Shown here piece after piece: positions 10,466-62,243 of a stretch of 64,000 nucleotides of DNA (the first letter of the stretch is position 1; each line of letters starts with the position of its first letter). Location of the stretch: positions 1-64,000 of IMG/VR virus record IMGVR_UViG_3300031111_000011; one strand, given 5' to 3'. This DNA comes from a virus. The notes beneath the pieces are model-generated. The model made no database searches and was not told the DNA's origin. It saw only the letters and a list, made by a program, of their open reading frames with translations. The position numbers and the translations under genes were made by a program.

Positions 10466-10719
10466 GAATTCAACTCACTCCAGAGGAGATCGACGGACTG
10501 AAGACGTGGTTGGCGTACCCAAAGAAGGTCCGCAGAGGGGAATGTCCGTTTGTCTTTGTGCCGGGGAATACCTGTGCTCGTATCTGCCGCATGGTTTTTC
10601 CGGGTGATGAACTCGGCCTGTGCCCCTGTGACCAAGAGGGCGCAGACCATAAAAAAATCTATGAAGTTGCACGAGAAGGTGCGGAAAGGGGGTACATCAC
10701 AATTGGACTCGGACATTAA
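10463..10719 (+). CDS. Cys-containing hypothetical protein (85 aa)
   Basis: ATG overlaps upstream stop; frame of track ORF 10375..10719. Confidence 0.45.
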
Positions 10720-11713
10720 TGGCACGGTGATTTTTCTGACACCGTTTGGATCGCATCTCTACGGTACATCCACTCCGGAGTCGGATCTGGACTACAAGGG
10801 GGTGTATCTGCCGACAAAGGAGCAGATCCTGATCGGGAAGATCCCCAAGACTATCACTCGAAACACCAAGGTCGGAGAGGGGAAGAACAGCAAGGAAGAC
10901 ATTGACTTTCAACTTTATTCTCTCCCCTACTTTGTGGACCTTCTGGTCCAGGGTGAAACGTCGGCTATCGACATGATCCATGTCCGAAAGGATCAAGCTC
11001 TCGTGTGGACGGATGAGTGGGAACGGCTGCACCGCAACCGTCACATGAGCTACAGCAGAAATATGAAGGCGTTCGTCGGGTATGCCCGTAAACAAGCGGC
11101 CAAGTACGGGGTCAAAGGCAGTCGCCTTGCAGCCATGCAAGACGTCCTTGAATACCTGATGGCCTATATCCAGAAGGAGATTCTGTATGATTATGAACGT
11201 GATACCAAACTTCGAGACGTATGGGATGATCTTCCTGATGGTGATCATATTCATCGTCTTGATCCGACTGATCGAACTCCTTATCGCATGTATCAGGTCT
11301 GTGGGAAGAAGTTTATGGAGACAGTCAAGATTCGAGAAGTCTACGCTTCGATCAAGAAGTCCTATGATCAATACGGTCACCGGGCAGAACTGGCGAAGAA
11401 GAATCAGGGCATCGACTGGAAGGCAGTATCCCACGCACTCCGTGCGGCTTACCAACTGGTGGAAATCTTTGGGTCCGGGGATCTGGCCTTTCCACTCGCT
11501 GATGCGGCTTATCTGCGGAAAGTGAAGGAAGGCTCACTGGACTGGACCTCCTGGGTTCAACCCCACCTGGAGGAAATGATGGGCCGGGTGGAGTGTATGG
11601 CCTCTCTCTCCAAATTCCCAGAACAAGTGGACCGGACCTTCTGGAACAATCTGACTATCGACATCATGGAAACGTGGTTACTTACTCAAACTGTAGGAGG
11701 TGAATTATGCTGA
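10661..11713 (+). CDS. Pol-beta superfamily nucleotidyltransferase (NTP_transf_2-like N-terminal domain), about 350 aa
   Basis: FGSHLYGTSTPESDLDYKGVY matches the hG[GS]x9-13Dh[DE]h motif; start uncertain (ATG 10661 overlaps the upstream gene; an internal GTG is possible). Confidence 0.55.
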   Translation: MKLHEKVRKGGTSQLDSDINGTVIFLTPFGSHLYGTSTPESDLDYKGVYLPTKEQILIGKIPKTITRNTKVGEGKNSKEDIDFQLYSLPYFVDLLVQGETSAIDMIHVRKDQALVWTDEWERLHRNRHMSYSRNMKAFVGYARKQAAKYGVKGSRLAAMQDVLEYLMAYIQKEILYDYERDTKLRDVWDDLPDGDHIHRLDPTDRTPYRMYQVCGKKFMETVKIREVYASIKKSYDQYGHRAELAKKNQGIDWKAVSHALRAAYQLVEIFGSGDLAFPLADAAYLRKVKEGSLDWTSWVQPHLEEMMGRVECMASLSKFPEQVDRTFWNNLTIDIMETWLLTQTVGGELC

Positions 11714-12774
11714 AGAACGTGACTATTTGTGGCTACAACGTGCGTGAAATCAATCTGGTACTGGCCGAGGACAACACCCCGCTTTACTCTGTGGGAGATC
11801 TCATGATGCCCATGGGGTTCACCCGCTACTCTGCGGCATCCAGGGTCAGGTCCATCCCGGAGCTTACCCACACCAAAATCAAGCTGCCCTCCACGGCCCA
11901 GGCGATTCATGTGGTGACCCCGGAGGGTGTCCTGGCCTTAGCCGAGACGGGGAAGTGTCGTACCAATTTCGTTTCGGAATTTCGATCCTATTGCCAGAAG
12001 GAGGGCATCCCCCTGCCCGATCCGGAAGTCACGCCGGATGGTCCCGCCGTCTTCAACGGCATCGAGATCACCTTCGAGGACGATGTCCTGGTGAGCCTGA
12101 CGGACATGTGGAAAGCGGACGGATCTCGTCAGGCCAAGAAACCCGTCCACTTCCTGAAAACGGATGGGACTGTGGAGTTTATCGAACAAATTCGGGAGGA
12201 AATAAAAGGTAAGGAATCTTACCTTTTACGATCTATCCCTGGTCGAGGTGGTGGAACCTACGCTCACTGGAAGATCGCTGTCCAGTATGCGGCTTTCCTC
12301 AGCCCCAAGTTCGCAAGCTGGATGGCCGATCTGGTCCGGGTCCGGTTCATCGAGATCAACGATCCGGAGCAGGGTGCCAAGCTGTACCGGGAACGTGCGA
12401 TCACCGACCGGATGAACAAGACCGGCTGCTCCCGTGAACAGGCAATCCACTATTTCGAGAAGAGCCTCGTCGCACGAAAAACGGTTTCGTCTCAGATCTG
12501 CCGGTTCGTTCCCAATGCGAGGAAACATATCGCTGAGATCACGGATCATCTCAATATGGGCTTTATCGGAATGAGAGCCCAGGACATCAAGAAAACCCGT
12601 GGGGTTTCCCAGACCCGTGAATCGTTTACCCTTGCGGAGCAGATGGGGGTGGCGTTTCTGGAACAGTGCATGATCGATCATATCGATCAAGTGAGATACG
12701 AAGCTGACCCGTACCACCTGCGGGATATGGCGTACTCCAACGGGCAAAAATGCCGAGCCATGATGGTGCGCTAA
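11707..12774 (+). CDS. KilA-N/Bro-N type antirepressor-like DNA-binding protein
   Basis: GGTYAHWKIAVQYAAFLSPKFASWM resembles a KilA-N (APSES) domain; GTAGGAGG RBS. Confidence 0.6.
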   Translation: MLKNVTICGYNVREINLVLAEDNTPLYSVGDLMMPMGFTRYSAASRVRSIPELTHTKIKLPSTAQAIHVVTPEGVLALAETGKCRTNFVSEFRSYCQKEGIPLPDPEVTPDGPAVFNGIEITFEDDVLVSLTDMWKADGSRQAKKPVHFLKTDGTVEFIEQIREEIKGKESYLLRSIPGRGGGTYAHWKIAVQYAAFLSPKFASWMADLVRVRFIEINDPEQGAKLYRERAITDRMNKTGCSREQAIHYFEKSLVARKTVSSQICRFVPNARKHIAEITDHLNMGFIGMRAQDIKKTRGVSQTRESFTLAEQMGVAFLEQCMIDHIDQVRYEADPYHLRDMAYSNGQKCRAMMVR

Positions 12775-12794
12775 AAAAAATCGGGTTTCACCCC

Positions 12795-12824
12795 TTGACA
12801 ACTTACCAGATGTGATTATATTAT
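12795..12824 (+). promoter_or_regulatory. Near-consensus sigma70 promoter (TTGACA .. TATATT/TATTAT)
   Basis: TTGACA at 12795-12800, then a 16-18 nt spacer and an AT-rich -10. Confidence 0.55.
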
Positions 12825-12854
12825 ATCTGGTTTCGGGAAATAGTAATTAACTAA

Positions 12855-12881
12855 CAGACCCTTGAGGGTCTGTGTTTTTTT
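12855..12881 (+). terminator. Rho-independent terminator ~45 nt downstream of the sigma70 promoter
   Basis: CAGACCCT-tg-AGGGTCTG followed by tgttttttt. Confidence 0.65.
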
Positions 12882-12890
12882 ACCTTCAAC

Positions 12891-12907
12891 TTATCAAATC
12901 TGAGAAC
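12891..12907 (+). promoter_or_regulatory. Palindromic motif TTATCAAATCTGAGAAC, site 3 (preceded by TACC)
   Basis: Sits between the terminator T-run and the AAGGAGG RBS of the 12918 gene. Confidence 0.5.
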
Positions 12908-12917
12908 AAGGAGGATT

Positions 12918-13223
12918 ATGAAAGAGTGTAACCGTTGCGGGAACCGGGAGTGTGACTTCATTCACGCTCCCAAGGAGCCGAAGGGCAAACCCAAAATGAG
13001 CTTTCCGAAGCTCCGGAAAGCCCCTCCAAAGGGGATCGCCCATGTTATGGGGCTTCCGTGCCCCATTTGGCGAAAAATCGACCCGATGCACAACCCTCTG
13101 TGGGAGAACCTGGACTCGGCCACCATCGTCAAGCTCCGGGATCTGCGGAAGGGGCTCGGCACACAGCGAAAAAACAAGGAGTGGAAAGGAGGCAAGAAGC
13201 GTAAACTTTGGAAAAACAGGTAG
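12918..13223 (+). CDS. zinc-ribbon, basic protein (101 aa)
   Basis: CAAGGAGG RBS; CNRCGNRECDF. Confidence 0.55.
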   Translation: MKECNRCGNRECDFIHAPKEPKGKPKMSFPKLRKAPPKGIAHVMGLPCPIWRKIDPMHNPLWENLDSATIVKLRDLRKGLGTQRKNKEWKGGKKRKLWKNR

Positions 13224-14434
13224 TCTGTCTCCGTGGGCTGCTGGATCACGATGCGTACCTCCGCTACGGTCCAGCCCTCCACGGGCTTAAGGACACTGAG
13301 CGTGAAATCAAACAGATCTTGACAGCTATCCAGCAGTACTACAAGCGGTATCCTGAACAAAAGGCCATCTCAGTGGATGAACTGAGGGTCTTTTTCCACC
13401 AGCAGCATCCAGCACTCAAGGACAAAGATGTCTTTGACGTTCTGTTCGACCAGATCCAACACCTTGACATCTCAAATCCCGACCTATTGGAAGACGCACT
13501 GAGGGACGTAGTTGAGCAATATTACGTCGGAAAGCTTTGTGCTGTCGGACTCCCGTGTCTCAATGGGGAGTCCACAGGGGTCATCGAGAAAATGAAGGAA
13601 ATTCTCGAAGAGGGTCTTGAGAAGATGAGTAAGACCGGTGATCAGGACGATAACCGGTGCAATATGGATCTGGATTACCTACTCGATGAGACGTTCAAGA
13701 ACGGGCTCTACACACCTTTGAGGGATCTGCGGTCCCTCCTTGGGCCTATCTACCCAGGCACACTGGGCCACATCTTTGCACGTCCGGAGACAGGTAAGAC
13801 TTCGTTTGCTTCAGCGATGGCATCTGCCTTTGCTTATCAAGTGCGTGACACCTCCGACATCATCCTCTACCTCAACAATGAAGAGGACAAGCGGCGTATT
13901 GCACTTCGCATCTGGGTTTCCATGATCGGGCAACCGATCCAATTTCTCGACGGAAACCGAGAAGAGGCAAGGAGAATTTGGAGCGAACGAGGTGGTGATC
14001 GGATTGAAGTCATTGGTGGAGTCACACACATCTCGCAGGTCGAACAGTACATCAGTGAGTTCAGACCCCGTGCGGTGTTTGTTGACCAGGGGCCGAATGT
14101 TTCAATCCCTGGTGATATGTCCGGGACGGACAAGCTTACAAAGCTATACAAGACCTACCGGAAACTCGCAGGGAAGTATGAAACAATCTTCATCTCCATC
14201 GGACAGGCAGACAGTCAGGCTGAGAACAAACAATGGCTCACAATGAACAACATCGATTCCAGCAAGGTGGGTATTCCTGGCGCATGTGACTACATCATTG
14301 GCGTAGGGATGAAAGACGATCCGGGTATGGAAGAGATGCGGTACATCAACCTGCCGAAGAACAAACTCACTGGGCAAAAGGGAAGACTCGTCTGTAGGCT
14401 GGATGTTAACACGTCCCGGTACGTTTCTGTTTGA
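13208..14434 (+). CDS. DnaB-family replicative helicase (T7 gp4 helicase-like)
   Basis: Walker A GHIFARPETGKTSF; RecA-like C-terminal domain; start assumed at TTG 13208. Confidence 0.7.
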   Translation: MEKQVVCLRGLLDHDAYLRYGPALHGLKDTEREIKQILTAIQQYYKRYPEQKAISVDELRVFFHQQHPALKDKDVFDVLFDQIQHLDISNPDLLEDALRDVVEQYYVGKLCAVGLPCLNGESTGVIEKMKEILEEGLEKMSKTGDQDDNRCNMDLDYLLDETFKNGLYTPLRDLRSLLGPIYPGTLGHIFARPETGKTSFASAMASAFAYQVRDTSDIILYLNNEEDKRRIALRIWVSMIGQPIQFLDGNREEARRIWSERGGDRIEVIGGVTHISQVEQYISEFRPRAVFVDQGPNVSIPGDMSGTDKLTKLYKTYRKLAGKYETIFISIGQADSQAENKQWLTMNNIDSSKVGIPGACDYIIGVGMKDDPGMEEMRYINLPKNKLTGQKGRLVCRLDVNTSRYVSV

Positions 14435-14447
14435 TTTTTTACCATTT

Positions 14448-14466
14448 ACTTCTCACATTTGAGCAT
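14448..14466 (+). promoter_or_regulatory. Palindromic motif ACTTCTCACATTTGAGCAT, site 4
   Basis: Follows a T-run after the helicase stop, precedes AAGGAGAG RBS. Confidence 0.45.
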
Positions 14467-14478
14467 AAGGAGAGTCAG

Positions 14479-14646
14479 TTGGCAGGAAAGCAGAAGAACA
14501 GCAAGAAGCCCAATGATACTCCCGCCCGTCGCCAGTACAAGCTGGAGAAACGAGCGGAGAAGAACAAGGAGCGGAGAGCAAAGCGTCAGGCGAAGCTCGA
14601 AGCAAAACACAAAGCCAAAAAAGAAAGGAGAAATGCTGATGATTGA
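14479..14646 (+). CDS. Lys/Arg-rich small protein (55 aa), TTG start
   Basis: AAGGAGAG RBS then TTG; the other frame over the same span (track ORF 14459) looks like Arg-rich junk. Confidence 0.4.
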   Translation: MAGKQKNSKKPNDTPARRQYKLEKRAEKNKERRAKRQAKLEAKHKAKKERRNADD

Positions 14647-15355
14647 GTTCAATAAAGGAGACAGGGTGGCCGTCAAGGATCTTGACATGTCCAATATTCT
14701 GTACTCGGTGTGTCCTGAGATGAAGCGGCTTCCTGGGAAGGAAGGCAAAGTCCTCGACACCTACCCCGTCTACAGCAGGGACGGCGCTCGGGTGGATTTC
14801 GACGGAGCAATCTACACCATCTACCTGGACGACCTACGGAAGGTTGAAACCTCCAAGAATCGCTTCAAAGACGGTGAACACGCTTTCGTGATCGGATTCC
14901 GAAATTCCCAGGCTGCTGGCATCCCCCTCACGGATGCCTTGAAAGCCCTCCGGAACAAGATTGTTCGATGCGCCGTGGGCAACGATGCTGTGGGCACCAG
15001 CAAGGTTTTCATCCAGCTTCCCACCGGGGCAACCCACCTGATCCATGCCGATGACCTGTGTGATCCGGAACAGATCGAGAAGGTCATCTACTACTACAAG
15101 CGGGACAAGAAGGGGAACCCCGTGGAAACCATCTGTCTCCTGATCAAGGACGGGGGGATGCACCGTGGTCGGTCCAAGTGCAATCGGGATGCCGGGGACA
15201 TCTTTCTCAAGAAGGAGGGCCGTCGGAAAGCTCGTGAACGTGCTGAGTTTGCCGCCCAGACCCAGTCGTCGGCCCGGTTCGCTCGTGGCGACCAGTTCAT
15301 GTTCGAGTACAAAACCAAACTCACCCCTCTGGAAAAGGAGATTGTCAAAGGATGA
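14633..15355 (+). CDS. hypothetical protein (240 aa)
   Basis: AAAGGAG RBS then ATG 14633; frame of track ORF 14459..15355. Confidence 0.55.
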   Translation: MLMIEFNKGDRVAVKDLDMSNILYSVCPEMKRLPGKEGKVLDTYPVYSRDGARVDFDGAIYTIYLDDLRKVETSKNRFKDGEHAFVIGFRNSQAAGIPLTDALKALRNKIVRCAVGNDAVGTSKVFIQLPTGATHLIHADDLCDPEQIEKVIYYYKRDKKGNPVETICLLIKDGGMHRGRSKCNRDAGDIFLKKEGRRKARERAEFAAQTQSSARFARGDQFMFEYKTKLTPLEKEIVKG

Positions 15356-15597
15356 AAATCAACACTGATATACCAAAACCTGGGGATCTGGTTCGTATTC
15401 TGAAAGTCTTTCGGACCAGTGCACACTTCGACGCATCTTATGATCTCCGTTTTCGGCAGCTTGTGGTGACGGATGTCCAGCGGTGCCACTGGGAAGGTCG
15501 TCACCTTCTGGCCTTAGTCGGCCACGCCCCTCTGGACCCGCTGAGTTCGTACTGCATTTTTGGGGTGGAGGTGGAGATCCTTCGGAAAGGAGAGTGA
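15352..15597 (+). CDS. hypothetical protein (81 aa)
   Basis: ATGA overlap; ORF track. Confidence 0.5.
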   Translation: MKINTDIPKPGDLVRILKVFRTSAHFDASYDLRFRQLVVTDVQRCHWEGRHLLALVGHAPLDPLSSYCIFGVEVEILRKGE

Positions 15598-16151
15598 TGA
15601 ACCCTACTATCTTTTTGGATCTGGATGGAGTCGTTGTGGACTTCATCCAGGGGGTTATCGATTGGTACGGGCTGGATACCAGCTACGACCTGATGAACCA
15701 CTACCAGTCAATCCTGGAAGTCACTGGGATGAGCAAGTCAGCGTTCTGGAAGGGACTCACTGAGGAGTTCTGGAAGGATCTCAAGTGGACCTCAGAGGGC
15801 AAAGAGTTCTATTCCTGGCTCAAGACCTTGGGGGTTCCCATCGTGGTCCTCACAAAGCCCACGCTGAACCGTGCCACTGGCAAACAGCAGTGGATCATGC
15901 GGGAGATGCCCACCCTTTTCAAAGAGGGCCGATATCTCATTGGTGGTTCCAAGCACCACGTAGCCGGTCCTGGCAAACTGCTCATCGATGATGACTTCGA
16001 AGGCAACTACATCAAATGGAAGGAGCATGGCGGTACCGCAGTGCTCTATCCGCAACCTTGGAACCCGGAAAGGAAAACTCACTTCAACGGCAACAAGGTG
16101 GACAAGGTCAAAGAGGCGATCCTCACAACCTTGAGAGGTTGGGGGGTCTAA
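15597..16151 (+). CDS. HAD-superfamily 5'(3')-deoxyribonucleotidase-like protein
   Basis: Begins MNPTIFLDLDGVVVDF (DxDGV HAD motif I); ATG 15597 overlaps upstream stop. Confidence 0.6.
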   Translation: MNPTIFLDLDGVVVDFIQGVIDWYGLDTSYDLMNHYQSILEVTGMSKSAFWKGLTEEFWKDLKWTSEGKEFYSWLKTLGVPIVVLTKPTLNRATGKQQWIMREMPTLFKEGRYLIGGSKHHVAGPGKLLIDDDFEGNYIKWKEHGGTAVLYPQPWNPERKTHFNGNKVDKVKEAILTTLRGWGV

Positions 16152-16152
16152 T

Positions 16153-18165
16153 GTGCAACGCAATATTGGCCTTGACGTAGAGACGAGTAAGTTGCCTGTA
16201 TTTCGGCCCTGGCAGAAGGGTGCGTTCCTGGTTAGTGTGGGGATCGTAGACGAGTGGGGATTTAAGAAGACGTGGTACTTCAACCACCGGGATCTCCACA
16301 ACATTGATCAGGCCCAGGCCATCGCTGAAATTCAAGCTGAGATTAACTTATCCCACCGTATCGTGGGGCATAACCTTAAATTTGATCTCCAGTGGCTTGC
16401 TTCCATTGGGGTCAGATTTGACCACTGCAAGTTGTTTTGTACTCAGGTAGCTGAGTATCTGCTGAATGGACAGCAGAAGATCCCGTACACTCTCGCTGCT
16501 ACATCAGAGCGATACGAGATCGCCCCAAAGATCGACCGGGTCAAGATGTTCTGGGATAGCGGGTATGAAACCGACGAAATCCCAATCGAGATCCTCGATC
16601 CCTACTTGCTCCAGGACTGTATCAACACACTCGCCATTTTCCAGCGACAGGTCGTTAACATCAACCAGTTGGGGATGTCCAAGATTGTGTCACTCCAAAT
16701 GGAGTTGATGCGCGTCCTGGCCGAGATGGAAATGAACGGGGCTAAGTTTCACCCCCAACGTGCTCAACGATACGTCAAGGAATTGGACGATCAGCTTGAG
16801 GCTATCGAGAACGAGCTATTCACTCACTTCGGTGCAAGATTCAACCTGGGGTCTGGGGATGAGCTCAGTGCGTGGTTATTTGGTGGAGTGCTCAAACAGG
16901 ACGATGTCCAACCCTACGTCACCACCCGCAACGTCAAAATCAAGGAACCTTATGTGTTCCACTATGCAGATCCGAAGAAGCAGCCTGTGATCAAGTACAA
17001 GACCAGGACGTTGAAGGAACTGATTGTGAAAACCCGTAAGGTGAAGGTGGACGTTCCGATAGCTGGTGTGGGGTTTGAGCCTCCAAAAGGATCTGAACTC
17101 AAAAAGGAGGGATTTTACCGCACTGACAAGGACACCCTGTTCCGTCTCAAGTGCAAAAACAAAAAGCTGAAGGCTATCAAGAGACTCCTCGAAGAGAGGA
17201 GTGTCGTCGCAAAGGCAAAGGAGACTTTCATCGGGTCCGGTGAAGGTACAGGGCTCATCAACAAAGTCCAACACGACGGGCTGATCCATCCGAGCTTCAA
17301 TCAAACGATTGCCGCCACGGGGAGGCTGAGTTCGTCAAACCCGAATGGGCAGAATCTGCCTCGCAAAGGCACCTCGCCCATCAAAAAAACCATCATCCCA
17401 AGGTTCGATAAGATCCTGAATGCTGACCTTGCCCAGTTGGAGTGGCGAGTGGCTGCATTCATGTCCCAAGATCCAGTGGCGATGCAGGAGATCATCGACG
17501 GTGTGGACTATCACACTGACAACGCGATCAGATTCTTTGGCGCTGATCCCAATGGTGACCCTGCGGAGTTCAAGAAGCTCCGTACCACGGCTAAGATCTT
17601 CGGATTTCGTTTACTCTACGGTGGGTCTGCTTACGGGATGTACATGGACGCAAAGATGCCTAACTACAGCAAGAAGAAGTGGCAACGCATCGTTGATGAG
17701 TACTACGAGAAGTATGCTGTCTTGAAGGAGTGGCAGGAGAAGAATATTGCGATTACCAACCGAAACAAAGGGAAGCTCGTTAACCCCTCCGGTCGGTTCT
17801 TCCAATTTCCCATTCTTCCACCGAACCGTAGGAGTGAGGTTTATTCGGTAACGGCTATCAAGAATTACCCGGTTCAGTCGTTCGCCACTGCTGACATTAC
17901 TCCGCTTGCCATGGTTGTGATCCACAAGAGGATGAAAGCGAAGGGACTTCGGTCCCTGATGACCCTCCAGGTTCACGATTCGATTGTCATCGATGCTGTG
18001 GAATCTGAGATTCCCACTATCGCTGAGATCTGTGTCAATACCTTCAGAGAGTTGCCTCAGTTGATCGAGCAGTTCTGGGGGTTCGAGTTCAACGTGCCGC
18101 TCGATGGTGACGTTGAAGTCGGAGACGACTACGGGTCGCTGGAGGAGTACAAGATGGCTGCTTAA
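16153..18165 (+). CDS. DNA polymerase, family A (T7-like, 3'-5' exonuclease + polymerase)
   Basis: Exo motifs (GLDVETS; HNLKFDLQWL); pol motif B RTTAKIFGFRLLYGGSAYG; motif C LQVHDSIVID; GTG start. Confidence 0.9.
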   Translation: MQRNIGLDVETSKLPVFRPWQKGAFLVSVGIVDEWGFKKTWYFNHRDLHNIDQAQAIAEIQAEINLSHRIVGHNLKFDLQWLASIGVRFDHCKLFCTQVAEYLLNGQQKIPYTLAATSERYEIAPKIDRVKMFWDSGYETDEIPIEILDPYLLQDCINTLAIFQRQVVNINQLGMSKIVSLQMELMRVLAEMEMNGAKFHPQRAQRYVKELDDQLEAIENELFTHFGARFNLGSGDELSAWLFGGVLKQDDVQPYVTTRNVKIKEPYVFHYADPKKQPVIKYKTRTLKELIVKTRKVKVDVPIAGVGFEPPKGSELKKEGFYRTDKDTLFRLKCKNKKLKAIKRLLEERSVVAKAKETFIGSGEGTGLINKVQHDGLIHPSFNQTIAATGRLSSSNPNGQNLPRKGTSPIKKTIIPRFDKILNADLAQLEWRVAAFMSQDPVAMQEIIDGVDYHTDNAIRFFGADPNGDPAEFKKLRTTAKIFGFRLLYGGSAYGMYMDAKMPNYSKKKWQRIVDEYYEKYAVLKEWQEKNIAITNRNKGKLVNPSGRFFQFPILPPNRRSEVYSVTAIKNYPVQSFATADITPLAMVVIHKRMKAKGLRSLMTLQVHDSIVIDAVESEIPTIAEICVNTFRELPQLIEQFWGFEFNVPLDGDVEVGDDYGSLEEYKMAA

Positions 18166-18179
18166 TTTTTTTCACTTGT

Positions 18180-18196
18180 CATTCTCAAATCTGAGA
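18180..18196 (+). promoter_or_regulatory. Palindromic motif TTCTCAAATCTGAGAAG, site 5
   Basis: After the DNA polymerase stop and a T-run, before AAAGGAGG RBS. Confidence 0.5.
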
Positions 18197-18209
18197 AGAA
18201 AGGAGGTGT

Positions 18210-18833: not shown

Positions 18834-18836
18834 CAA

Positions 18837-19454: not shown

Positions 19455-19642
19455 TGTCATTCACGCAGCTTGCTGCCTGGGTGGGTCTGCTCATTGGAAC
19501 CATCCTTATGTTCGGAGGGGTCATTGCACCCCTCCTGAACGCAACCGTTGATGTTCTTGTGATTGCCGGGATCACTGTCCTGGCTCTCACAGTCTGGGGA
19601 TTCTGCAAACTCGTCGTTCAGATCCTCGACAAACTCTACTAA
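19454..19642 (+). CDS. small membrane protein (62 aa, 2 TM)
   Basis: Hydrophobic throughout; ATGA overlap. Confidence 0.5.
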   Translation: MSFTQLAAWVGLLIGTILMFGGVIAPLLNATVDVLVIAGITVLALTVWGFCKLVVQILDKLY

Positions 19643-19669
19643 TCCAACCAAAAAGGAGGACAACACACT

Positions 19670-20539: not shown

Positions 20540-20548
20540 CCCTCAACC

Positions 20549-20579
20549 GGGGAGGGGGAATCTGCCCCCCTCCCCTTCT
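20549..20579 (+). terminator. GC-rich hairpin (terminator-like) after the SPFH gene
   Basis: GGGGAGGGGG-aatctg-CCCCCCTCCCC; weak T-tract. Confidence 0.45.
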
Positions 20580-20671
20580 GAAAGGAAATAAAGATCCAAG
20601 ACTGTTTACCCCTCCGACTGGCATTCGAGGCATATAACACACCGTGGACTAAACCACGGAACACATACTAC

Positions 20672-21481
20672 GTGACGGAGCTTATCACTCCACCTCGAAT
20701 TGTTCAGCTTCGGACCCGACACAAGGACCGTATCCCGCTCACTTCCATCGATGATTCGGCCAAGGCACTTGAAGGTAACGGGTTCCATAGCATGATGGAA
20801 AGGTGGCTCTACCGTTCTCCCCGAAAGAGTGAGTTCCTGAACGAATTTCGTGTCTTCGACAAGATCCACGGAAGGAAGGTGGTCGGAAAACTCGATGTTT
20901 TCCATAAACCCTCCGGGACACTCTACGATTACAAATCTACGAGCATCTACAAGGCGATGTTCGGAGATGTCGAGGACTTCGAGAACCAGCTAAACATCTA
21001 CGCATGGTTCATGTCCCAGGAAGGGTACGATGTAAACGCCATCAAGGTCATCTTCTGGCACTTCATGTGGGACAAATTCCAGATGATGCGCGACCCAAAG
21101 TACCCTCGTCACAAGTATCATGAAATCGATATTCCCCTCTGGACTTTAGAAGAGAGAGAGGAGTTTCTTTTCAGCAAGGTGCGGCAGCACGTAGCGGCAG
21201 AGAGTCTTGCTGATGATGACCTCCCCTACTGCACTCCTTCGGAGATGTGGGAGAAGGACACCAAGTACGCCATCATGGAACCAGGAGCAAAACGTGCGGC
21301 GAGAGTTCTTGATACACCGGAAGACCTTGAGAAGTATGCGGAATGGAAGGAAACGTCGGGCAAACCACTCAAGAAAGGGTGGAAGATCGAAGAGCGGCCA
21401 GGGACTCGGATGCGATGTGAGCAGTTCTGCTCATGCAATGTCTTCTGCAACCAATACGCGGAGTGGCAGGGTGCGTGTTAG
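20672..21481 (+). CDS. PD-(D/E)xK nuclease, Cas4/RecB-like, with C-terminal Cys cluster
   Basis: GKLDVFHK .. DYKST motif; C-terminal CEQFCSCNVFC; GTG start uncertain. Confidence 0.55.
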   Translation: MTELITPPRIVQLRTRHKDRIPLTSIDDSAKALEGNGFHSMMERWLYRSPRKSEFLNEFRVFDKIHGRKVVGKLDVFHKPSGTLYDYKSTSIYKAMFGDVEDFENQLNIYAWFMSQEGYDVNAIKVIFWHFMWDKFQMMRDPKYPRHKYHEIDIPLWTLEEREEFLFSKVRQHVAAESLADDDLPYCTPSEMWEKDTKYAIMEPGAKRAARVLDTPEDLEKYAEWKETSGKPLKKGWKIEERPGTRMRCEQFCSCNVFCNQYAEWQGAC

Positions 21482-21962
21482 AATTCCCTCTTCTTTTCGT
21501 TCACTGGCAAAGGCGATTGAGTTTTGGGAAAACGTCCCAAAGGGGCAAAGAACAAAGGCCAATGCTCGGAGGGTAGCCAATGTTGTAGGCTATCGTTCCA
21601 TGGCTGAAGTCAAGTTTGCTGCTGATCTGAAAGCAAAGAAGATCAAGTTTGACTATGAGCCGGAGAAGTTCCAGTACATCCCACCAGCGAAAAACTACAC
21701 ACCTGATTTCCGAATCAAGAAACGAAAGCGCTCTGGTGGGTATATGTACATCGAGTTCAAAGGGAATTTCAAAGGCTCTGATCGGACCAAAATGCTCTTA
21801 GTGAAGCGGGATCACCCAGAGATGGATCTTCGGCTTGTCTTTATGAAGGCTGACAACAGACTCAATCGGAACTCGAAGACCACTTATGCGAAGTGGTGTG
21901 ACAAAAACGGATTCAAATGGGCTGATGGTGGAGTGCTGCCGGATGCCTGGGCAAAGGAATAG
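21471..21962 (+). CDS. Holliday-junction resolvase, T7 endonuclease I (gp3) homologue
   Basis: KFDYEPEKFQYIPPAKNYTPDF, VKRDHPEMDLRLVF and YAKWCDKNGFKWADGGVLPDAWAKE match T7 gp3 blocks from memory; GTG 21471 or ATG 21600 as start. Confidence 0.7.
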   Translation: MRVRIPSSFRSLAKAIEFWENVPKGQRTKANARRVANVVGYRSMAEVKFAADLKAKKIKFDYEPEKFQYIPPAKNYTPDFRIKKRKRSGGYMYIEFKGNFKGSDRTKMLLVKRDHPEMDLRLVFMKADNRLNRNSKTTYAKWCDKNGFKWADGGVLPDAWAKE

Positions 21963-21969
21963 GAGGTAC

Positions 21970-22404
21970 ATGCAACCTACCATTTACTTCAAGCAGTTGG
22001 ACAAGAGAGCCATCGTCCCTGTGTATCAGTCCCCTGGTGCCAGTGGGTTTGATTTCCATGCGCTCGACGGGGGCCAGATCCTTCCTGGTGAGATTGTCCT
22101 GTTTGAAACAGGACTCGCTTGTGAGATCCCGATTGGCCTGGAACTCCAAGTCAGACCCCGGTCTGGTCTTGCAGTGAAACACGGCATCACAGTGGTCAAC
22201 GCACCTGGGACGGTGGATTCAGATTACCGGGGTCCGATCATGGTCGGGCTGATCAACCTGGGTCGGACACACCACATGGTCAGGGCTGGAGATAGGATTG
22301 CACAGGGTGTTATCCAGGAAGTGAAAATCCCTCATATCCTTGTCGTAGAACATCTATCGGAGACGGAACGTGGATCGGGCGGTTTTGGATCAACAGGTCG
22401 ATAG
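21970..22404 (+). CDS. dut: dUTP pyrophosphatase
   Basis: RSGLA, GTVDSDYRG and GGFGSTG motifs; AGGAGG RBS. Confidence 0.9.
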   Translation: MQPTIYFKQLDKRAIVPVYQSPGASGFDFHALDGGQILPGEIVLFETGLACEIPIGLELQVRPRSGLAVKHGITVVNAPGTVDSDYRGPIMVGLINLGRTHHMVRAGDRIAQGVIQEVKIPHILVVEHLSETERGSGGFGSTGR

Positions 22405-22524
22405 AATTATCGAAGCTTCTGAGATCCTTCGTATGAAGGGTACCAGCAACCCGACCCTGGATGATCTGACAGATCTTGCCGAAGAGCTTCAAGACGTCGC
22501 TGAAATTATCACGGAGGAATACCT

Positions 22525-22701
22525 ATGAACGGAAAGAAAGCCAAAGCCATTCGGAAAGCGGTCTATCGAGATGTACCTGGAGGCTCCACTGGGGAGCAGC
22601 GCCGGTATGTCCAACACACCAAAACCAAGGTTGTCTACGTGACCGGCCATCGACGTGCCTACGTGGATGCCAAGAAACTCATCAAAGAAAGGGGGATCTA
22701 A
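22525..22701 (+). CDS. hypothetical basic protein (58 aa)
   Basis: ACGGAGGAATACCT then ATG; not in ORF track. Confidence 0.4.
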   Translation: MNGKKAKAIRKAVYRDVPGGSTGEQRRYVQHTKTKVVYVTGHRRAYVDAKKLIKERGI

Positions 22702-22916
22702 TGAAACACGCAATCAAACGCCGGGTCTTTTTCTGGAGAAACTTCAACTTCGTGATGCGGGGTTTTCGTCGGCTGAGTACCCGGCTGGAGCGGATTCAGA
22801 AGGAGCGAAAAGCGGAACTCATCGCCATGGCAATCAAGATGAATGCCCTGGAGCGGGAACATGAGGACACGTCGGTGACCCTCAAGAACCTCAAGGAGAT
22901 GTTTCCGGCCCTGTAA
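22701..22916 (+). CDS. hypothetical protein (71 aa)
   Basis: ATG overlapping upstream TAA; frame of track ORF 22476..22916. Confidence 0.45.
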   Translation: MKHAIKRRVFFWRNFNFVMRGFRRLSTRLERIQKERKAELIAMAIKMNALEREHEDTSVTLKNLKEMFPAL

Positions 22917-24823
22917 TGTTCCCAACGCTGTACCAGGAGTTCATCTACAAGCGAACCTATTCTCGGTGGCTGGATGAACTCCTTCGGAGAGAGGAGTGGG
23001 AGGACACGGTAGCTCGGTACCAAGAGTTCTTCCTGGACGGTAAACTCAAGGATATTCCCGATGCAGCTAAGGTGGAATTCCTTGAGGCTACCGGTGCAAT
23101 CTACAACCTCGAAGTTATGGGGTCCATGCGGACCCTGTGGACTGCTGGTCCTGCCTTGGCCCGTGAAAACATCTGCGGGTACAACTGTGCTTACAAGGCA
23201 GTCAATACTGTGCGAAGCTTCGCTGAGATCCTGTACATCCTGCTCTGTGGTACTGGGGTTGGGTACAGTGTGGAGCGGCAGGAGATCAACCAACTCCCTG
23301 AAGTCCCGCCTTACTTCTCCACTCCAGAACGCACCGTTGTGTTCTCTGATTCGAAGAAGGGATGGGCTGAGGGATTTCTCAAGTGGATGAACGCCCTCTA
23401 TAAGGGTGAGTTGCTTGAGTACGACCTCTCCCGAATCCGTCCTGCTGGATCACGGCTGAAGACCTTCGGGGGCAGAGCCAGTGGACCTGAGCCCCTCCAG
23501 GAACTTCTGGAATTCGCCAAACGCATTTTTCTCAGTGCCAAGGGACGGAAGCTAACGAGCCTGGAATGTTACGACATCTGCTGCAAGATCGCTGAGGTGG
23601 TTGTCGTAGGAGGTGTGAGACGGTCTGCCTGTATTTGCCTCACCAACCTGTCCGATGACCGGATGGCTAAGGCCAAGACGGGTGAGTTCTGGCTTCTCAA
23701 CCCCCAGAGATCCCTGTCCAACAATTCGGTGGCGTACACCGAGAAGCCTCAAGTGCGGAAGTTCATGAGTGAGTGGCTCAAGCTCATGGAGTCCCAGACC
23801 GGAGAGCGGGGGATCTTCAATCGAAGAGCAGCAGAGGTTGCTGTGCAGCGCACCCTACGCCGAAAGGGAGGGTTCGCTTGGGGCTGCAATCCTTGCGGGG
23901 AAGTGATTCTCCGTCCGTCTGGTCAGTTCTGCAACCTGAGCGAGGCGATCATTCGGGCTGAGGACACTCTTGAAACAATTCTCAAGAAGGTCCGATACGC
24001 AACCATCCTGGGTTGTGTCCAGGCCACACTCACTGCGTTCAAATTTCTGGGGAGTTCATGGACAGTGAACACCGAGGAGGAGCGACTCCTTGGGGTGTCT
24101 CTCACAGGTCTTATGGACCATCCAATTCTTAGTGAGGTGTCGGACAAGGCCAAGGCATGGCTTGTCAAGATGAAAGGAGAGGCCATTGAAACAGCGGAAA
24201 GGTGGTCGGAGATTCTTGGAATTCCGATGCCGAAAGCGATTACGACCGTCAAGCCGTCTGGAACAGTCAGTCAACTGGTTGACTCTGCATCCGGACTTCA
24301 CCCTCGCTTTGCTCCTTTCTATGTACGCCGGGTTCGTGTCTCTGCGACAGATCCTGTAGCGAAGATGCTTGTTGACCAGGGAGTTCCCTGTAGCCCTGAA
24401 GTCGGACAGGACACGGTAAGTCCATCCACTTGGGTCTTTGAGTTCCCGGTTAAGTCTCCGGACAACGCGAAGGTAGCCAGCGCAATCACTGCTCTGGAGC
24501 AGTTGGAGTACTGGCTGATGCTCAAACAGCATTGGTGTGAACACAACCCCTCTTGCACGGTCTATGTGGGAGAGGATGAGTGGTTGGAAGTGGGTGCATG
24601 GGTGTGGAAACACTGGGATGAGATTTGCGGTCTTACCTTCATGCCTCGCAGTGACGCAGTTTACAAACTTGCTCCTTATGAGGAGGTAGATGCGAGGACT
24701 TACTACGATCTTGTTGACGCTCTTCCTGACATCAATTTTGGTGAATTGTCTCGATACGAAACCGAAGACCTCACTGAAGGGAGCAGAGAATTCGCCTGTC
24801 AGGGAGGAGCTTGCGAACTATGA
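22916..24823 (+). CDS. nrdJ: ribonucleotide reductase, class II (adenosylcobalamin-type) candidate
   Basis: NPCGEV and CNLSE active-site blocks; N-terminal YKRTYSRW..EEWEDTVARY; 635 aa single chain with no separate radical-generating subunit nearby. Confidence 0.75.
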   Translation: MFPTLYQEFIYKRTYSRWLDELLRREEWEDTVARYQEFFLDGKLKDIPDAAKVEFLEATGAIYNLEVMGSMRTLWTAGPALARENICGYNCAYKAVNTVRSFAEILYILLCGTGVGYSVERQEINQLPEVPPYFSTPERTVVFSDSKKGWAEGFLKWMNALYKGELLEYDLSRIRPAGSRLKTFGGRASGPEPLQELLEFAKRIFLSAKGRKLTSLECYDICCKIAEVVVVGGVRRSACICLTNLSDDRMAKAKTGEFWLLNPQRSLSNNSVAYTEKPQVRKFMSEWLKLMESQTGERGIFNRRAAEVAVQRTLRRKGGFAWGCNPCGEVILRPSGQFCNLSEAIIRAEDTLETILKKVRYATILGCVQATLTAFKFLGSSWTVNTEEERLLGVSLTGLMDHPILSEVSDKAKAWLVKMKGEAIETAERWSEILGIPMPKAITTVKPSGTVSQLVDSASGLHPRFAPFYVRRVRVSATDPVAKMLVDQGVPCSPEVGQDTVSPSTWVFEFPVKSPDNAKVASAITALEQLEYWLMLKQHWCEHNPSCTVYVGEDEWLEVGAWVWKHWDEICGLTFMPRSDAVYKLAPYEEVDARTYYDLVDALPDINFGELSRYETEDLTEGSREFACQGGACEL

Positions 24824-24966
24824 AAATGATTCTGGAGTACGTCGCAGGGATTTTTATCTCACTTGGGGCCATCATCGGAGCGGGTGCGGTGATGGTTATT
24901 GCAACTTTGGCCGCAACGTGGCCCTTTTGGGTTGCTCTTGCCTGTATCGTTTACATCTTCTTTTAG
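24820..24966 (+). CDS. small hydrophobic membrane protein (48 aa); holin candidate
   Basis: ATGA overlap with RNR stop; almost entirely TM. Confidence 0.4.
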   Translation: MKMILEYVAGIFISLGAIIGAGAVMVIATLAATWPFWVALACIVYIFF

Positions 24967-24975
24967 GAGGCCAAC

Positions 24976-25080
24976 ATGACAATCGAACGCTTTATGGAGT
25001 GGGTCATGGTGGGGATCATCGTTGTTGCGGGGATCTTCATCACTCTCGGTATCGACTCACTCTCCAACATCCTGAGTTAG
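24976..25080 (+). CDS. small membrane protein (34 aa); holin/antiholin candidate
   Basis: AGGAGG RBS then ATG; one TM. Confidence 0.35.
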   Translation: MTIERFMEWVMVGIIVVAGIFITLGIDSLSNILS

Positions 25081-25089
25081 GAGGTGGCC

Positions 25090-25329
25090 TTGAATCAGAA
25101 GGGATTCACTTTGATCGAACTGATGATTGTGGTTGCGATCATTGGGATCTTGGGCGCTGTGGCCGTCCCCAATCTCGTTTCTTACAAGCAGAAAGCGGAG
25201 TCGGCAGCACTGGAAATCAAGATCAACCGAGAGAACATGAAAAAGGCGGGGGAGGATCTGAGGGACACCTTCAAGTCCCTCCTCCCCCGGAAGACTTACT
25301 CGAACGAAGTTATTGTGACAAGGGAGTAA
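25090..25329 (+). CDS. type IV prepilin-like protein (class III signal peptide)
   Basis: AGGAGG 6 nt before TTG; MNQKG|[24 protein letters not shown] is a canonical prepilin leader plus N-terminal helix. Confidence 0.55.
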
Positions 25330-25331
25330 CA

Positions 25332-25862
25332 TTGGCAATTGACAAAGACCAGATGCGAGATCTGGTTCGGGATGTCCTGATGTACCTGGACCCTGAGATC
25401 CCCTTCTCTGCTGATGCAGTGGAGTTGATCATGCTCACTATGGCTCAGGAATCCCACATGGGAACATACATTAAGCAGCTTGGTACAGGACCGGCCAAGG
25501 GTGTGGTTCAGATGGAACCCTCTACTGAGGAAGACATCTGGGACAATTACCTGCGGTACAAGAAGGATCTGGCAACTAAGGTACGTGCGCTCTATGCAGC
25601 CATGCAAATCGGGCGTGACTTTGAGCTTGATCCTCTTCGACACAACCTCGCCTACCAGATCGCCATGGCGAGGGTTCACTATCGGAGAGTGAGTGACCCT
25701 CTTCCCAAGGTCCATTTCCAACTTCAGTTTGAGGCTGATGGGATCATCACAGAGAACAGTGTGAAGCGACTCGCTGAGTATTGGAAGGAGCATTACAACA
25801 CACCACTTGGAAAGGGAAAACCTGAAGAGGCGGTGTACAACTATGTGAGGTTCGCTGTATGA
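25332..25862 (+). CDS. lytic transglycosylase (SLT-domain) endolysin candidate
   Basis: MAQESHMG..GTGPAKGVVQME matches the SLT ES..G..GA.GLMQ signature; TTG start after AGGGAG. Confidence 0.55.
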   Translation: MAIDKDQMRDLVRDVLMYLDPEIPFSADAVELIMLTMAQESHMGTYIKQLGTGPAKGVVQMEPSTEEDIWDNYLRYKKDLATKVRALYAAMQIGRDFELDPLRHNLAYQIAMARVHYRRVSDPLPKVHFQLQFEADGIITENSVKRLAEYWKEHYNTPLGKGKPEEAVYNYVRFAV

Positions 25863-26383
25863 GGAACTGCGATAACTGTCGGTACTTAGAGGTTTCTCTA
25901 CGGGATGAGCCGTGCTTCGGGTGTGTAGGGTACAGTAACTGGAAACCCGAACTCCCTCCCAGTGGAGAGGGACAGAAAGGACGAGAAGTAATCGTGAATA
26001 ACTGTGTTCTCCCCGACAGCGGGAAACGAGAAGGGTTCGATAGTGGATCGATTCGAGATAGCCGAGAAGGGAAAGGCCGGTACGATCTGATCAGCCCCTT
26101 CGCTCTGAAGCGGATCGCAGTCCACTACGAAAATGGTGCCAAGAAGTACGCTGACCGGAACTGGGAGAAAGGCCAACCGATCATGCGGTACTTCGACAGT
26201 GCCGTGCGTCACCTCTTCACATGGGTCACAGACAAACTCTGTGGCCGTCCCCATGCGGAGGATCACCTCGCTGCTGCGGCCTGGAACGTCATGGCAATGC
26301 TGGACCACGAGGAACGTATCGCTATTGGCCGACTCCCTACCGGGATCGATGATAGCCCTGGTCCTGCATGGAAGCCCGAATAA
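25859..26383 (+). CDS. hypothetical protein; possibly the dATP/dGTP diphosphohydrolase-associated N-terminal domain family
   Basis: RYDLISPFALKRIAVHYENGAKKYADRNWEKG recalled as a hallmark of that phage domain family; uncertain. Confidence 0.4.
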   Translation: MRNCDNCRYLEVSLRDEPCFGCVGYSNWKPELPPSGEGQKGREVIVNNCVLPDSGKREGFDSGSIRDSREGKGRYDLISPFALKRIAVHYENGAKKYADRNWEKGQPIMRYFDSAVRHLFTWVTDKLCGRPHAEDHLAAAAWNVMAMLDHEERIAIGRLPTGIDDSPGPAWKPE

Positions 26384-26394
26384 ACAACCCACTG

Positions 26395-26422
26395 GAAGGG
26401 GCATATATTTTTTGCCCCTTCC
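26395..26422 (+). terminator. 10-bp GC hairpin (GGAAGGGGCA..TGCCCCTTCC) with a T-rich loop
   Basis: Read directly; immediately followed by palindrome site 6 and the RBS of rtcB. Confidence 0.4.
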
Positions 26423-26438
26423 TTCTCAATATTGAAAA
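26423..26438 (+). promoter_or_regulatory. Palindromic motif TTCTCAATATTGAAAAG, site 6
   Basis: Abuts the AGGAGG RBS of rtcB. Confidence 0.45.
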
Positions 26439-26446
26439 GGAGGACT

Positions 26447-27661
26447 ATGGAAAAGGTCATGTTTTCATCAGGCAGAATCCCTGCCTACTCATGGTTACCA
26501 GTGGACAAACTGGAGGAAGGCGCTCTGGAACAGATCCAGGCTTGCACTGCCCACCCCAAGGCTTACCACCACATGGCTGTGATGCCCGACTGTCACCAGG
26601 GATATGGGATGCCCATTGGCGGTGTGGTTGCCCTGGACGGCGCAATCAGCCCCAACATGGTGGGGGTGGACATCGGCTGTGGGATGAGTGTGGTCCGCAC
26701 CAACGCCAAATTCGTTCACACTTATCAAATCAAGGAAATCCTGAACCGACTCAAGACCATGGTTCCTGTCGGTGAGGGGAAGTTTCGATCTGACCCCGTC
26801 TCCTGGCCCAAGTGGGTGGAGTATCTGGACAAGGTCAAGGAGCGTCCTGACTGGATGAAGGGCTCTAACTGGCATCGGTTCAAGTGCAGCATGGGAACTC
26901 TGGGAGGTGGGAACCACTTTCTGGAGCTTCAGCGGGATGAAGAGGGTTACCTCTACATGATGCTCCACTCCGGTTCCCGTGGCCTGGGGTACGCCATTGC
27001 CAAGTACTACAACGAACTGGCCCAGACCTACTGCGTCAACCTAGACATCCCCAACAAAGATCTGGCTTACCTGCCGACCGATCACAAGTGGGGGCAAGCC
27101 TACATCCGGGACATGAACTTCGCCCTGGCTTTTGCCAAGGAAAACCGCAGGGTCATGATGGATGCCTTCAAATTCGCTTTCTTCCACGTTCTTGGATCTC
27201 CTGTCCGGGAGGACATTGATGTTGTCGATGAGATCGACATCCACCACAACTACGCGGCATTGGAGCACCACTTCGGCAAGGATCTGTGGGTTCACCGGAA
27301 AGGCGCGACTTCGGCCCAGTCTGGACAACTGGGGATCATTCCCGGTTCCATGGGAACCCACTCCTACGTCGTCGCTGGTAAGGGGAACCCGGACTCCTTC
27401 AAGTCCTGCTCCCACGGTGCTGGTCGAGTGAAGGGTCGGATGGCCGCTACTCGTGAACTCGACCGGATGGAGCAGGAGAGGAAGATGGACGGCATTGTCT
27501 TTGACGGGTTCAAAACCCTGAAGAAGGGTAAGCTGAAAGGTGCGTATGACCTGGGCGAAGCCCCTGATGCCTACAAAAATATTGATACTGTCATGTGGCA
27601 CCAGGGGGATCTGGTGGACGTGGTAGTAAAACTCAAACCGATAGGAGTCTTGAAAGGGTGA
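26447..27661 (+). CDS. rtcB: RtcB-family RNA 3'-phosphate ligase
   Basis: DIGCGM, GGGNHFLELQ, HNYAALE and HRKGAT blocks; about 404 aa. Confidence 0.85.
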   Translation: MEKVMFSSGRIPAYSWLPVDKLEEGALEQIQACTAHPKAYHHMAVMPDCHQGYGMPIGGVVALDGAISPNMVGVDIGCGMSVVRTNAKFVHTYQIKEILNRLKTMVPVGEGKFRSDPVSWPKWVEYLDKVKERPDWMKGSNWHRFKCSMGTLGGGNHFLELQRDEEGYLYMMLHSGSRGLGYAIAKYYNELAQTYCVNLDIPNKDLAYLPTDHKWGQAYIRDMNFALAFAKENRRVMMDAFKFAFFHVLGSPVREDIDVVDEIDIHHNYAALEHHFGKDLWVHRKGATSAQSGQLGIIPGSMGTHSYVVAGKGNPDSFKSCSHGAGRVKGRMAATRELDRMEQERKMDGIVFDGFKTLKKGKLKGAYDLGEAPDAYKNIDTVMWHQGDLVDVVVKLKPIGVLKG

Positions 27662-62151: not shown

Positions 62152-62157
62152 ATAAGC

Positions 62158-62231: not shown

Positions 62232-62243
62232 ATGATTTGCAGA

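Follow-up and report, generated by a model that had tools for sequence, protein, structure and literature searches.

RtcB is an RNA ligase that joins 3'-phosphate or 2',3'-cyclic-phosphate ends to 5'-OH ends, as left by metal-independent anticodon nucleases (PMC7824862). In jumbo phages, tRNA genes occur together with RtcB or Rnl ligases, the nucleotidyltransferase RlaP and sometimes Ro/TROVE proteins, and this combination has been read as a counter-defence suite (Iyer et al. 2021, PMC7824862). That paper cites Burroughs & Aravind 2016 for the idea, and a routine phage genome paper offers the same suggestion (PMC13313380). The replacement of cleaved host tRNAs by phage tRNAs, or their evasion of tRNA-targeting defences, has experimental support elsewhere (PMC11555353, PMC10264068). 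Here we analysed a 64,000-nt stretch (hereafter the window; positions 1 to 64,000 of IMG/VR record IMGVR_UViG_3300031111_000011), which is most of the complete circular genome of an uncultivated tailed phage. A first-pass annotation had proposed that it carries a single repair module of rtcB, a nucleotidyltransferase gene and 17 tRNA genes. The results showed that the phage encodes a predicted intact RtcB, a predicted RlaP of the T4 NrdC.11 type and a large tRNA array as separate transcription units. These three parts probably form a dispersed kit protecting translation from host RNA-cutting defences.

RlaP has been characterised in a December 2025 preprint, in which two Pseudomonas RlaPs added 1-2 nucleoside monophosphates (NMPs) to an RNA 3'-OH with Mn2+, preferred the 5' half of nicked tRNA, did not use DNA as a substrate, and partly restored aminoacylation of tRNA lacking one anticodon-loop nucleotide (PMC12776372). 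The 3'-OH in the anticodon loop was a better substrate for these enzymes than the acceptor 3' end; they showed little nucleoside triphosphate (NTP) specificity and could use dATP on RNA. The crystal structure of PfRlaP has an N-terminal nucleotidyltransferase (NTase) domain and a C-terminal helical domain that forms a cleft, and T4 NrdC.11 was assigned to the RlaP family. The authors proposed RlaP as an antidote to the cut-then-trim nucleases RloC and PaOrf2, and they raised the problem that its 3'-OH product suits 5'-phosphate ligases, not RtcB (PMC12776372).

We assessed the rtcB product against protein families and found that it matched Pfam PF01139 over the entire profile (positions 1-426 of 426, E 6.7e-105) as well as phrog_1075 (E 2.8e-114). 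The first-pass annotation had placed this gene exactly and had correctly noted a strong ribosome-binding site (RBS), which reads AAGGAGG and lies 3 nt 5' of the ATG. Alignment to P. horikoshii RtcB revealed that the catalytic positions were all kept (D75, C78, N156/H157, H174, H283 and H323). We take the P. horikoshii equivalents to be D95, C98, N202/H203, H234, H329 and H404, which comprise the metal ligands and the GMP-carrying histidine, and H323 is presumably the nucleophilic histidine that becomes guanylylated. Judged by these residues, the product is predicted to be a full-length, catalytically intact RtcB. Its nearest homologues were bacterial (50-54% identity; Desulfobacterales, Riflebacteria and similar groups), and the copy in the sister phage shared 49% identity with it. 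RtcB was encoded in approximately 700 cultured phage records, mainly from actinophages and Listeria, Bacillus and Caulobacter phages, and all were at or below 40% identity to the window RtcB. In Bordetella phage PHB04 and Stenotrophomonas phage ANB28, no nucleotidyltransferase adjoined the RtcB gene.

The nucleotidyltransferase was present in the frame given by the first-pass annotation, which had described a 350-aa protein starting at ATG 10661, labelled it NTP_transf_2 and considered its C-terminal domain uncharacterised; the frame stood, but the start and the label did not. The start is most likely TTG 10703, giving 336 aa, because ATG 10661 has no RBS (it lies within an overlapping 85-aa open reading frame, ORF), because TTG 10703 is preceded by AAGGGGG, and because the length of T4 NrdC.11 is thereby obtained. 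The public gene call starts at GTG 10574 and yields 379 aa. The 85-aa ORF is Cys-rich, overlaps the preceding gene by ATGA and also overlaps the 5' extension of the public call, suggesting that public 379-aa RlaP calls start too early.

RlaP (PF10127) was the sole Pfam family matched by the nucleotidyltransferase at E <= 0.01 (41.4 bits, cutoff 23; profile positions 18-143 of 249); at this threshold neither NTP_transf_2 nor the head domain of class I/II CCA-adding enzymes was matched. The PF10127 model aligned only to the N-terminal half of the protein, whereas phrog_388 matched its full length (E 1.1e-87), and identity to T4 NrdC.11, also of 336 aa, was 41% end to end. More than 3,000 metagenomic homologues were found, with PF10127 present in 120 of 120 among the matches listed, and the pol-beta catalytic signature (G16 S17, D28 x D30, D66, D90) was invariant in a 72-sequence alignment. 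An AlphaFold (AF2) model with a predicted local distance difference test score (pLDDT) of 92 showed an N-terminal NTase domain followed by a helical domain into which a small beta element is inserted. The C-terminal half that had been considered uncharacterised thus appears to be the family's own conserved helical, HEPN-like domain. A sequence search of solved structures gave chance-level matches only, and Foldseek of the model against the PDB returned nothing better than E 2e-3; matches to HalB, ANT(4') and AadA (all E > 1e-3, template modelling score TM < 0.35) indicated likeness at the fold level only. The comparison with RlaP (pfam10127) recommended by the first-pass annotation was thus well aimed: on sequence, the enzyme is a full-length orthologue of T4 NrdC.11 in that RlaP subgroup. 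The CD-NTase or antibiotic-type enzyme that the same annotation had named as the refuting outcome did not appear, since RlaP alone was matched in Pfam and HalB and kanamycin nucleotidyltransferase resembled it in fold only. RlaP matches in cultured phages came mainly from T4-like phages.

The tRNA array had been placed by the first-pass annotation between the nucleotidyltransferase and rtcB genes (10661-27661), but it actually lies at the far end of the window on the minus strand and runs off it (Table 1). Default ARAGORN called 12 tRNAs in the window (Gln, Asn, Lys, Ile, Val, two Arg, Thr, two Gly, Ala and Asp). An Rfam match above the gathering score added a tRNA whose anticodon loop reads His-GUG, and relaxed ARAGORN added a probable Pro-UGG and a weak Trp-CCA. 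In the middle of the array we observed a 103-nt tRNA-like element with a good D-arm, T-arm and CCA end and approximately 25 extra nt in the anticodon/variable region. This element may represent a pseudogene, a decoy or an insertion resembling an intron. Solid tRNAs in the window thus number 13, and candidates up to 16, so that the earlier count of at least 14 was fair, while 17 was not reproduced. Because mapping of the window onto a circularly permuted 67,073-bp ENA contig shows a gap of 2,932 bp between the window end and the window start, the full genome is a circle of 66,932 bp. This length agrees with that of the 67,073-bp contig once a 141-bp assembly overlap, inferred from k141 in the contig name, is subtracted. 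The array as a whole extends over 4.3 kb with 21 default ARAGORN calls and approximately 24 tRNAs in all; with His, Pro and Trp it may cover all 20 amino acids. The 3' CCA was encoded in 21 of the 21 default-called tRNA genes.

We also searched for other RNA-end enzymes. RtcA and RtcR had no Pfam match in the genome, tblastn with Rnl proteins from two unrelated phage contigs (L099 and L004) found nothing in the window, and neither the window nor L007 yielded a TROVE homologue. The sole ATP-dependent ligase detected was of the DNA-ligase type (PF01068 + OB_2, phrog_114). As far as sequence can tell, RtcB is the only RNA ligase found, and no RNA-end enzyme other than RtcB and RlaP can be recognised in the 66.9-kb genome. 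An NT5C-like HAD protein was considered as an RNA 3'-phosphatase and set aside, as its matches were to the phage 5'-3' deoxyribonucleotidase family and to no family that acts on RNA.

Table 1. Positions of the features discussed, numbered from the first nucleotide of the window
Feature	Positions	Strand	Description
PAS + LuxR/GerE-type helix-turn-helix regulator	7249-8028	+	early region
Cys-rich 85-aa ORF	10462-10719	+	overlaps the preceding gene and the extended RlaP call
RlaP-family pol-beta nucleotidyltransferase	10703..11713	+	336 aa from TTG 10703 (most likely start)
Intrinsic-terminator-like hairpin	12854..12880	+	8-bp stem then T-run (GTTTTTTTAC); terminator scan
NT5C-like HAD protein	15483-16151		deoxyribonucleotidase family
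Type IV pilin-like protein	25090-25329	+	79 aa, N-terminal methylation motif
dATP/dGTP diphosphohydrolase-like gene	25859-26383	+	N-terminal domain PF18909
G+C-rich 10-bp hairpin	26394..26422	+	RNAfold free energy (dG) -20.5 kcal/mol, z -3.3
rtcB	26447..27661	+	404 aa; predicted RNA 3'-phosphate/2',3'-cyclic-phosphate to 5'-OH ligase
131-aa ORF	27658..28053	+	public gene call; GTG start overlaps rtcB stop (GTGA)
Long imperfect hairpin	27700..27757	+	RNAfold dG -31.2 kcal/mol, z -6.2; 0/200 shuffles as stable
Nicotinamide phosphoribosyltransferase	28874-30322	+	NAMPT_N + NAPRTase
Small NMN adenylyltransferase-like protein	30315-30821	+	second gene of the NAD+ salvage pair
Tyrosine-recombinase/integrase-like gene	34648-36009	-	position kept in relatives
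tRNA array, part within the window	62077..63735	-	ARAGORN; beside terminase
Probable tRNA Pro-UGG	62158-62231	-	relaxed ARAGORN
Weak tRNA Trp-CCA	62496-62569	-	relaxed ARAGORN
tRNA, anticodon loop reads His-GUG	62587-62659	-	Rfam, above gathering score
103-nt tRNA-like element	62698..62800	-	ARAGORN intron mode; Rfam weak (20.8 bits, E 0.64)

We then compared the locus with the described systems. Phage RlaP shares with T4 NrdC.11 its length, the GS...DxD...D motif and a conserved C-terminal half. T4 pairs NrdC.11 with Pnkp and the 5'-phosphate ligases Rnl1/Rnl2, whereas the only RNA ligase found in the window phage is RtcB. The repair of PrrC-cleaved tRNA-Lys by T4 Pnkp and Rnl1 follows the same proposed logic, in which the phage mends a host tRNA cut by an abortive-infection nuclease; however, searches of the window phage found neither Pnkp nor an Rnl homologue, and RtcB seals without end healing. 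The Pseudomonas rtcB-rlaP-rtcA operon likewise brings both enzyme families together and shows the same mismatch between 3'-OH and 3'-phosphate (PMC12776372), but its genes are adjacent, include RtcA and are under RtcR control, whereas those of the phage lie 14.7 kb apart with no RtcA or RtcR found. Moreover, phage RlaP falls in the T4 subgroup (cluster 5) and the Pseudomonas RlaPs in cluster 1a. The RNA-repair suites of jumbo phages are similar in component mix and predicted purpose (PMC7824862), and relatives of the window phage carry the TROVE component too; the window phage differs in being SU10-like, in having a genome of only 67 kb and in carrying a minimal RtcB and RlaP pair. A large phage tRNA array is shared with T5, whose tRNAs counter retron PtuAB (PMC11555353, PMC10264068). 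As for the bacterial rsr-yrlA-rtcBA operon, its Ro60/TROVE, RtcA and RtcR components were not found in the window phage, and TROVE and a Y-RNA-like element occur in the relatives L103/L104.

The window has a G+C content of approximately 52%, with early, replication and nucleotide-metabolism genes in a plus-strand block at ~3.4-34 kb and structural genes in a minus-strand block at ~36-62 kb. Its genes include those for a portal and an adaptor of the SU10 type, a terminase, a tail protein of 2,235 aa and a tyrosine-recombinase-like product. Identical copies of window proteins are present on a 67,101-bp JGI contig and on the 67,073-bp ENA contig. Megablast of positions 10000-28000 against 50,697 phage records gave zero matches; therefore, there is no close cultured relative. 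Relatives were found with a polymerase A alignment followed by tblastn, single scans with RtcB, RlaP or terminase having given few or none, and their tRNA arrays were covered at loci beside the terminase.

Among these relatives, a 65-kb phage (L018, L002, L103) shared the layout primase-RlaP-KilA-N-helicase-polA-dUTPase-ribonucleotide reductase-RtcB. In L024 the slots were swapped: the primase/helicase slot held RtcB, RlaP came after the reductase, and an Rnl2-like ligase lay between the two. In L021-23 the slot held by RlaP in the window was occupied by another RtcB lineage (35% identity to the window RtcB). A 60.8-kb relative had the order polA-RlaP-HD phosphohydrolase, with no RtcB up to the integrase; RlaP followed the reductase in L101 and the primase in L102, and L009 had neither gene in the 16 kb examined. 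Throughout the clade, RlaP was always inside the replication gene block. By gene order, RlaP and RtcB appear to occupy two interchangeable slots within the replication module. Across the lineage, a few sites hold RNA-repair genes whose combination and position vary, a pattern typical of counter-defence accessory genes, and this supports the RNA-repair theme of the first-pass annotation.

The RNA-ligase neighbourhood on which the family name of RlaP is based was not seen in the window genome, but it was found for RlaP orthologues: the genes are adjacent in L004 and L099, and L018 and L024 carry both genes. The two unrelated contigs hold members of the same RlaP subgroup, arranged as RlaP-HD-...-RtcB-...-RNA_ligase in L099 and as RNA ligase-RlaP-SLT-pilin-like-RtcB inside 4.7 kb in L004. 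In addition, a Ro60/TROVE protein adjoined the tRNAs beside the terminase in L103 (1-452) and L104 (5235-6764), the two clusters holding 4 and 14 tRNAs. A tRNA-like element without acceptor ends, embedded in a long stem, was observed 5' of the TROVE gene in L104 (4817-4878), and it resembles bacterial Y RNA (YrlA).

If the three parts protect translation, RtcB would directly reseal tRNA (or another RNA) in which a metal-independent anticodon nuclease has left a 2',3'-cyclic phosphate and a 5'-OH. RlaP would replace bases trimmed by cut-then-nibble nucleases such as RloC, and the near-complete set of approximately 24 phage tRNAs would replace or outnumber destroyed host tRNAs. Within this reading, sealing by RtcB and replacement of tRNAs have the firmer basis; the cooperation of RlaP with RtcB, like the substrates and the counter-defence role, is what we infer. 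The counter-defence purpose suggested by the first-pass annotation fits published predictions (PMC7824862, PMC12776372) and the gene neighbourhoods of other phages, but a direct pathway from RlaP to RtcB lacks a known step, since RlaP leaves a 3'-OH that RtcB cannot seal.

Several findings weigh against this reading. The start of rtcB lies 14.7 kb past the end of RlaP, with approximately 20 replication and nucleotide-metabolism genes between them (including KilA-N, helicase, DNA polymerase A, exonuclease, endonuclease I, dUTPase and class II ribonucleotide reductase), and the tRNAs are on the opposite strand more than 30 kb away. RlaP and rtcB are also parted by terminator-like hairpins, one of which follows the RlaP/KilA-N pair and divides it from the replication genes and rtcB (Table 1). 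Because of these distances, the two strands and the hairpins, RlaP, rtcB and the tRNA array are separate transcription units and there is no physical module, contrary to the single module first proposed. Relatives showed every combination, namely RlaP-HD without RtcB, RtcB without visible RlaP, and neither in L009, and in cultured phages RlaP and RtcB were mostly found in different phage groups. The complete genome contained no 5'-phosphate RNA ligase, Pnkp, HD, RtcA, 2H or TROVE by Pfam hits and scans and by tblastn with the HD, Rnl and TROVE proteins of relatives. The product of RlaP ends in 3'-OH, while RtcB needs a 3'-phosphate or cyclic phosphate (PMC12776372). Finally, the literature that could be searched yielded no experiment on, and no demonstrated phenotype for, any phage RtcB or NrdC.11.

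It seems rather unlikely that these genes have independent accessory functions and no connection beyond a shared genome, with the tRNAs serving codon supply or translational autonomy during host shut-off, RtcB acting as a general RNA-damage ligase acquired from bacteria, and RlaP having an NrdC.11-like role unrelated to RtcB. The wide separation of the transcription units, the variable presence among relatives and the incompatible end chemistries would all agree with it, as would the presence of NrdC.11 without RtcB in T4-like phages and the greater similarity of RtcB to bacterial homologues than to the sister phage's copy. However, in other phages members of the same RlaP subgroup adjoin RtcB as well as ATP-dependent RNA ligases, RlaP and RtcB sit in interchangeable slots in the clade, and Ro60/TROVE adjoins the tRNA clusters of relatives, which argues for a connection. 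The same lineage-wide set of RlaP, Rnl2, HD, Ro60 and tRNAs points to tRNA-type substrates and speaks against a different target of RtcB, either toxin-cut rRNA or mRNA, as in PrfH/RtcB2 ribosome repair, or DNA with 3'-phosphate/5'-OH ends. For such a target one may cite the location of rtcB among replication and nucleotide-metabolism genes rather than beside the tRNAs. Das, Chakravarty and Shuman reportedly found in 2013 that E. coli RtcB joins DNA 3'-P/5'-OH ends. RtcB repair of damaged ribosomes is documented (PMC9304027). Nevertheless, the phage protein scored 152 bits against NCBIfam TIGR03073 (release_rtcB), under the 271.8-bit cutoff, and no PrfH-like gene was present in the Pfam lists of the genome; we consider a non-tRNA substrate very unlikely.

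A role of RlaP in restoring trimmed CCA tails or in replication, for example by extending RNA primers, appears extremely unlikely. Additions by RlaP are limited to 1-2 nucleotides, dATP can be added to RNA (PMC12776372), defences that cut tRNA tails exist (PMC12851939), and the gene is always within the replication block in the clade. Nevertheless, the Pseudomonas enzymes favour the 3'-OH in the anticodon loop and do not act on DNA, and their low NTP specificity means that CCA repair would be error-prone (PMC12776372). Only RlaP, and nothing of the CCA-adding class, was matched in Pfam. The CCA-repair-like role offered by the first-pass annotation is therefore not favoured, given this preference of the characterised enzymes and the CCA encoded in every default-called tRNA gene. 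That RlaP and RtcB act in one pathway would require a hidden 3'-end step, over-extension followed by re-cutting, or an RtcB taking unusual ends, and we regard it as distinctly unlikely. In the first case, the phage or one of the numerous small unassigned proteins it encodes might convert the 3'-OH product of RlaP into an RtcB substrate, possibly as an RNA 3'-kinase, and the 131-aa ORF translationally coupled to rtcB would be a candidate. Alternatively, RlaP might over-extend the end and the attacking nuclease might re-cut it, leaving a 3'-phosphate, or the RtcB of the window phage might itself accept unusual ends.

The combination and purpose of the protective kit favoured here are already published and involve no new principle, because the jumbo-phage suite has been described (PMC7824862) and routine genome papers suggest likewise. 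The window genome adds a compact, non-jumbo example with a minimal RtcB and RlaP pair and possibly a complete tRNA set. Modestly new are the small genome size, the minimal pair lacking any end-healing enzyme, the exchange of slots and the presence of two RtcB lineages within a single clade, and the Ro60/Y-RNA-like elements in relatives. If RlaP and RtcB do act in one pathway, the clade would be a minimal natural system for the puzzle of RlaP-RtcB end compatibility. Its varying combinations and positions of RlaP, RtcB, HD, Rnl2 and Ro60/tRNA genes make it a convenient comparative set that bears on whether RlaP and RtcB cooperate and how the RNA-end mismatch is solved. Host tRNA-cutting nucleases are a growing class of anti-phage defences, and the phage answers to them, including spare tRNAs, ligases and end-repair enzymes, help set host range.

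The surroundings of rtcB were examined for the terminator hairpin of its own that the first-pass annotation had claimed. Hairpins do flank the gene, but the upstream one sits between the dATP/dGTP diphosphohydrolase-like gene and rtcB and would therefore terminate the preceding gene, and the downstream one, 40 nt past the rtcB stop, has no U-tract and lies within the coding sequence of the 131-aa ORF; its inner stem was also picked up by the terminator scan. The palindrome motif noted there was examined as a recurrent element, and the 3 copies of its core GACCC...GGGTC in the window are within chance expectation. The 131-aa ORF had no match in Pfam, PHROG or NCBIfam and only 5 matches among 1.8 billion representatives; tblastn found a homologue in L009, which lacks RtcB in its examined 16 kb. 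The single-sequence AlphaFold model of this ORF (pLDDT 53) was unusable, and nothing in the family or homologue searches supports the idea of an archease or end-healing enzyme. The diphosphohydrolase-like gene has homologues in relatives L010 and L021. Its PF18909 domain is linked to phages with modified DNA bases, and no PurZ-like gene was seen.

The rtcB gene is set between ribonucleotide reductase/dNTP pyrophosphatase-like genes and NAD-salvage genes. The NAD+ salvage pair, a nicotinamide phosphoribosyltransferase followed by a small nicotinamide mononucleotide (NMN) adenylyltransferase-like protein, begins 1.2 kb 3' of rtcB; two-gene pairs of this kind have been reported to counter NAD-depleting defences. 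Approximately 1.1 kb 5' of rtcB lies the gene for the type IV pilin-like protein, and a similar small pilin-like gene is located directly 5' of rtcB in the unrelated contig L004 (9335-9577). Elsewhere in the window, the PAS and LuxR/GerE-type regulator of the early region is kept in the 65-kb relative as a GerE-domain gene. Apart from the integrase-like gene, the phage has the appearance of a lytic one, encoding its own polymerase and reductase and a set of tRNAs. Moreover, inteins with LAGLIDADG and intein domains were found in the ribonucleotide reductase of L101 (4281-6860), and the terminases of relatives (P0249 and P0250) probably contain inteins too, being 795-817 aa long compared with 484-532 aa in other homologues.

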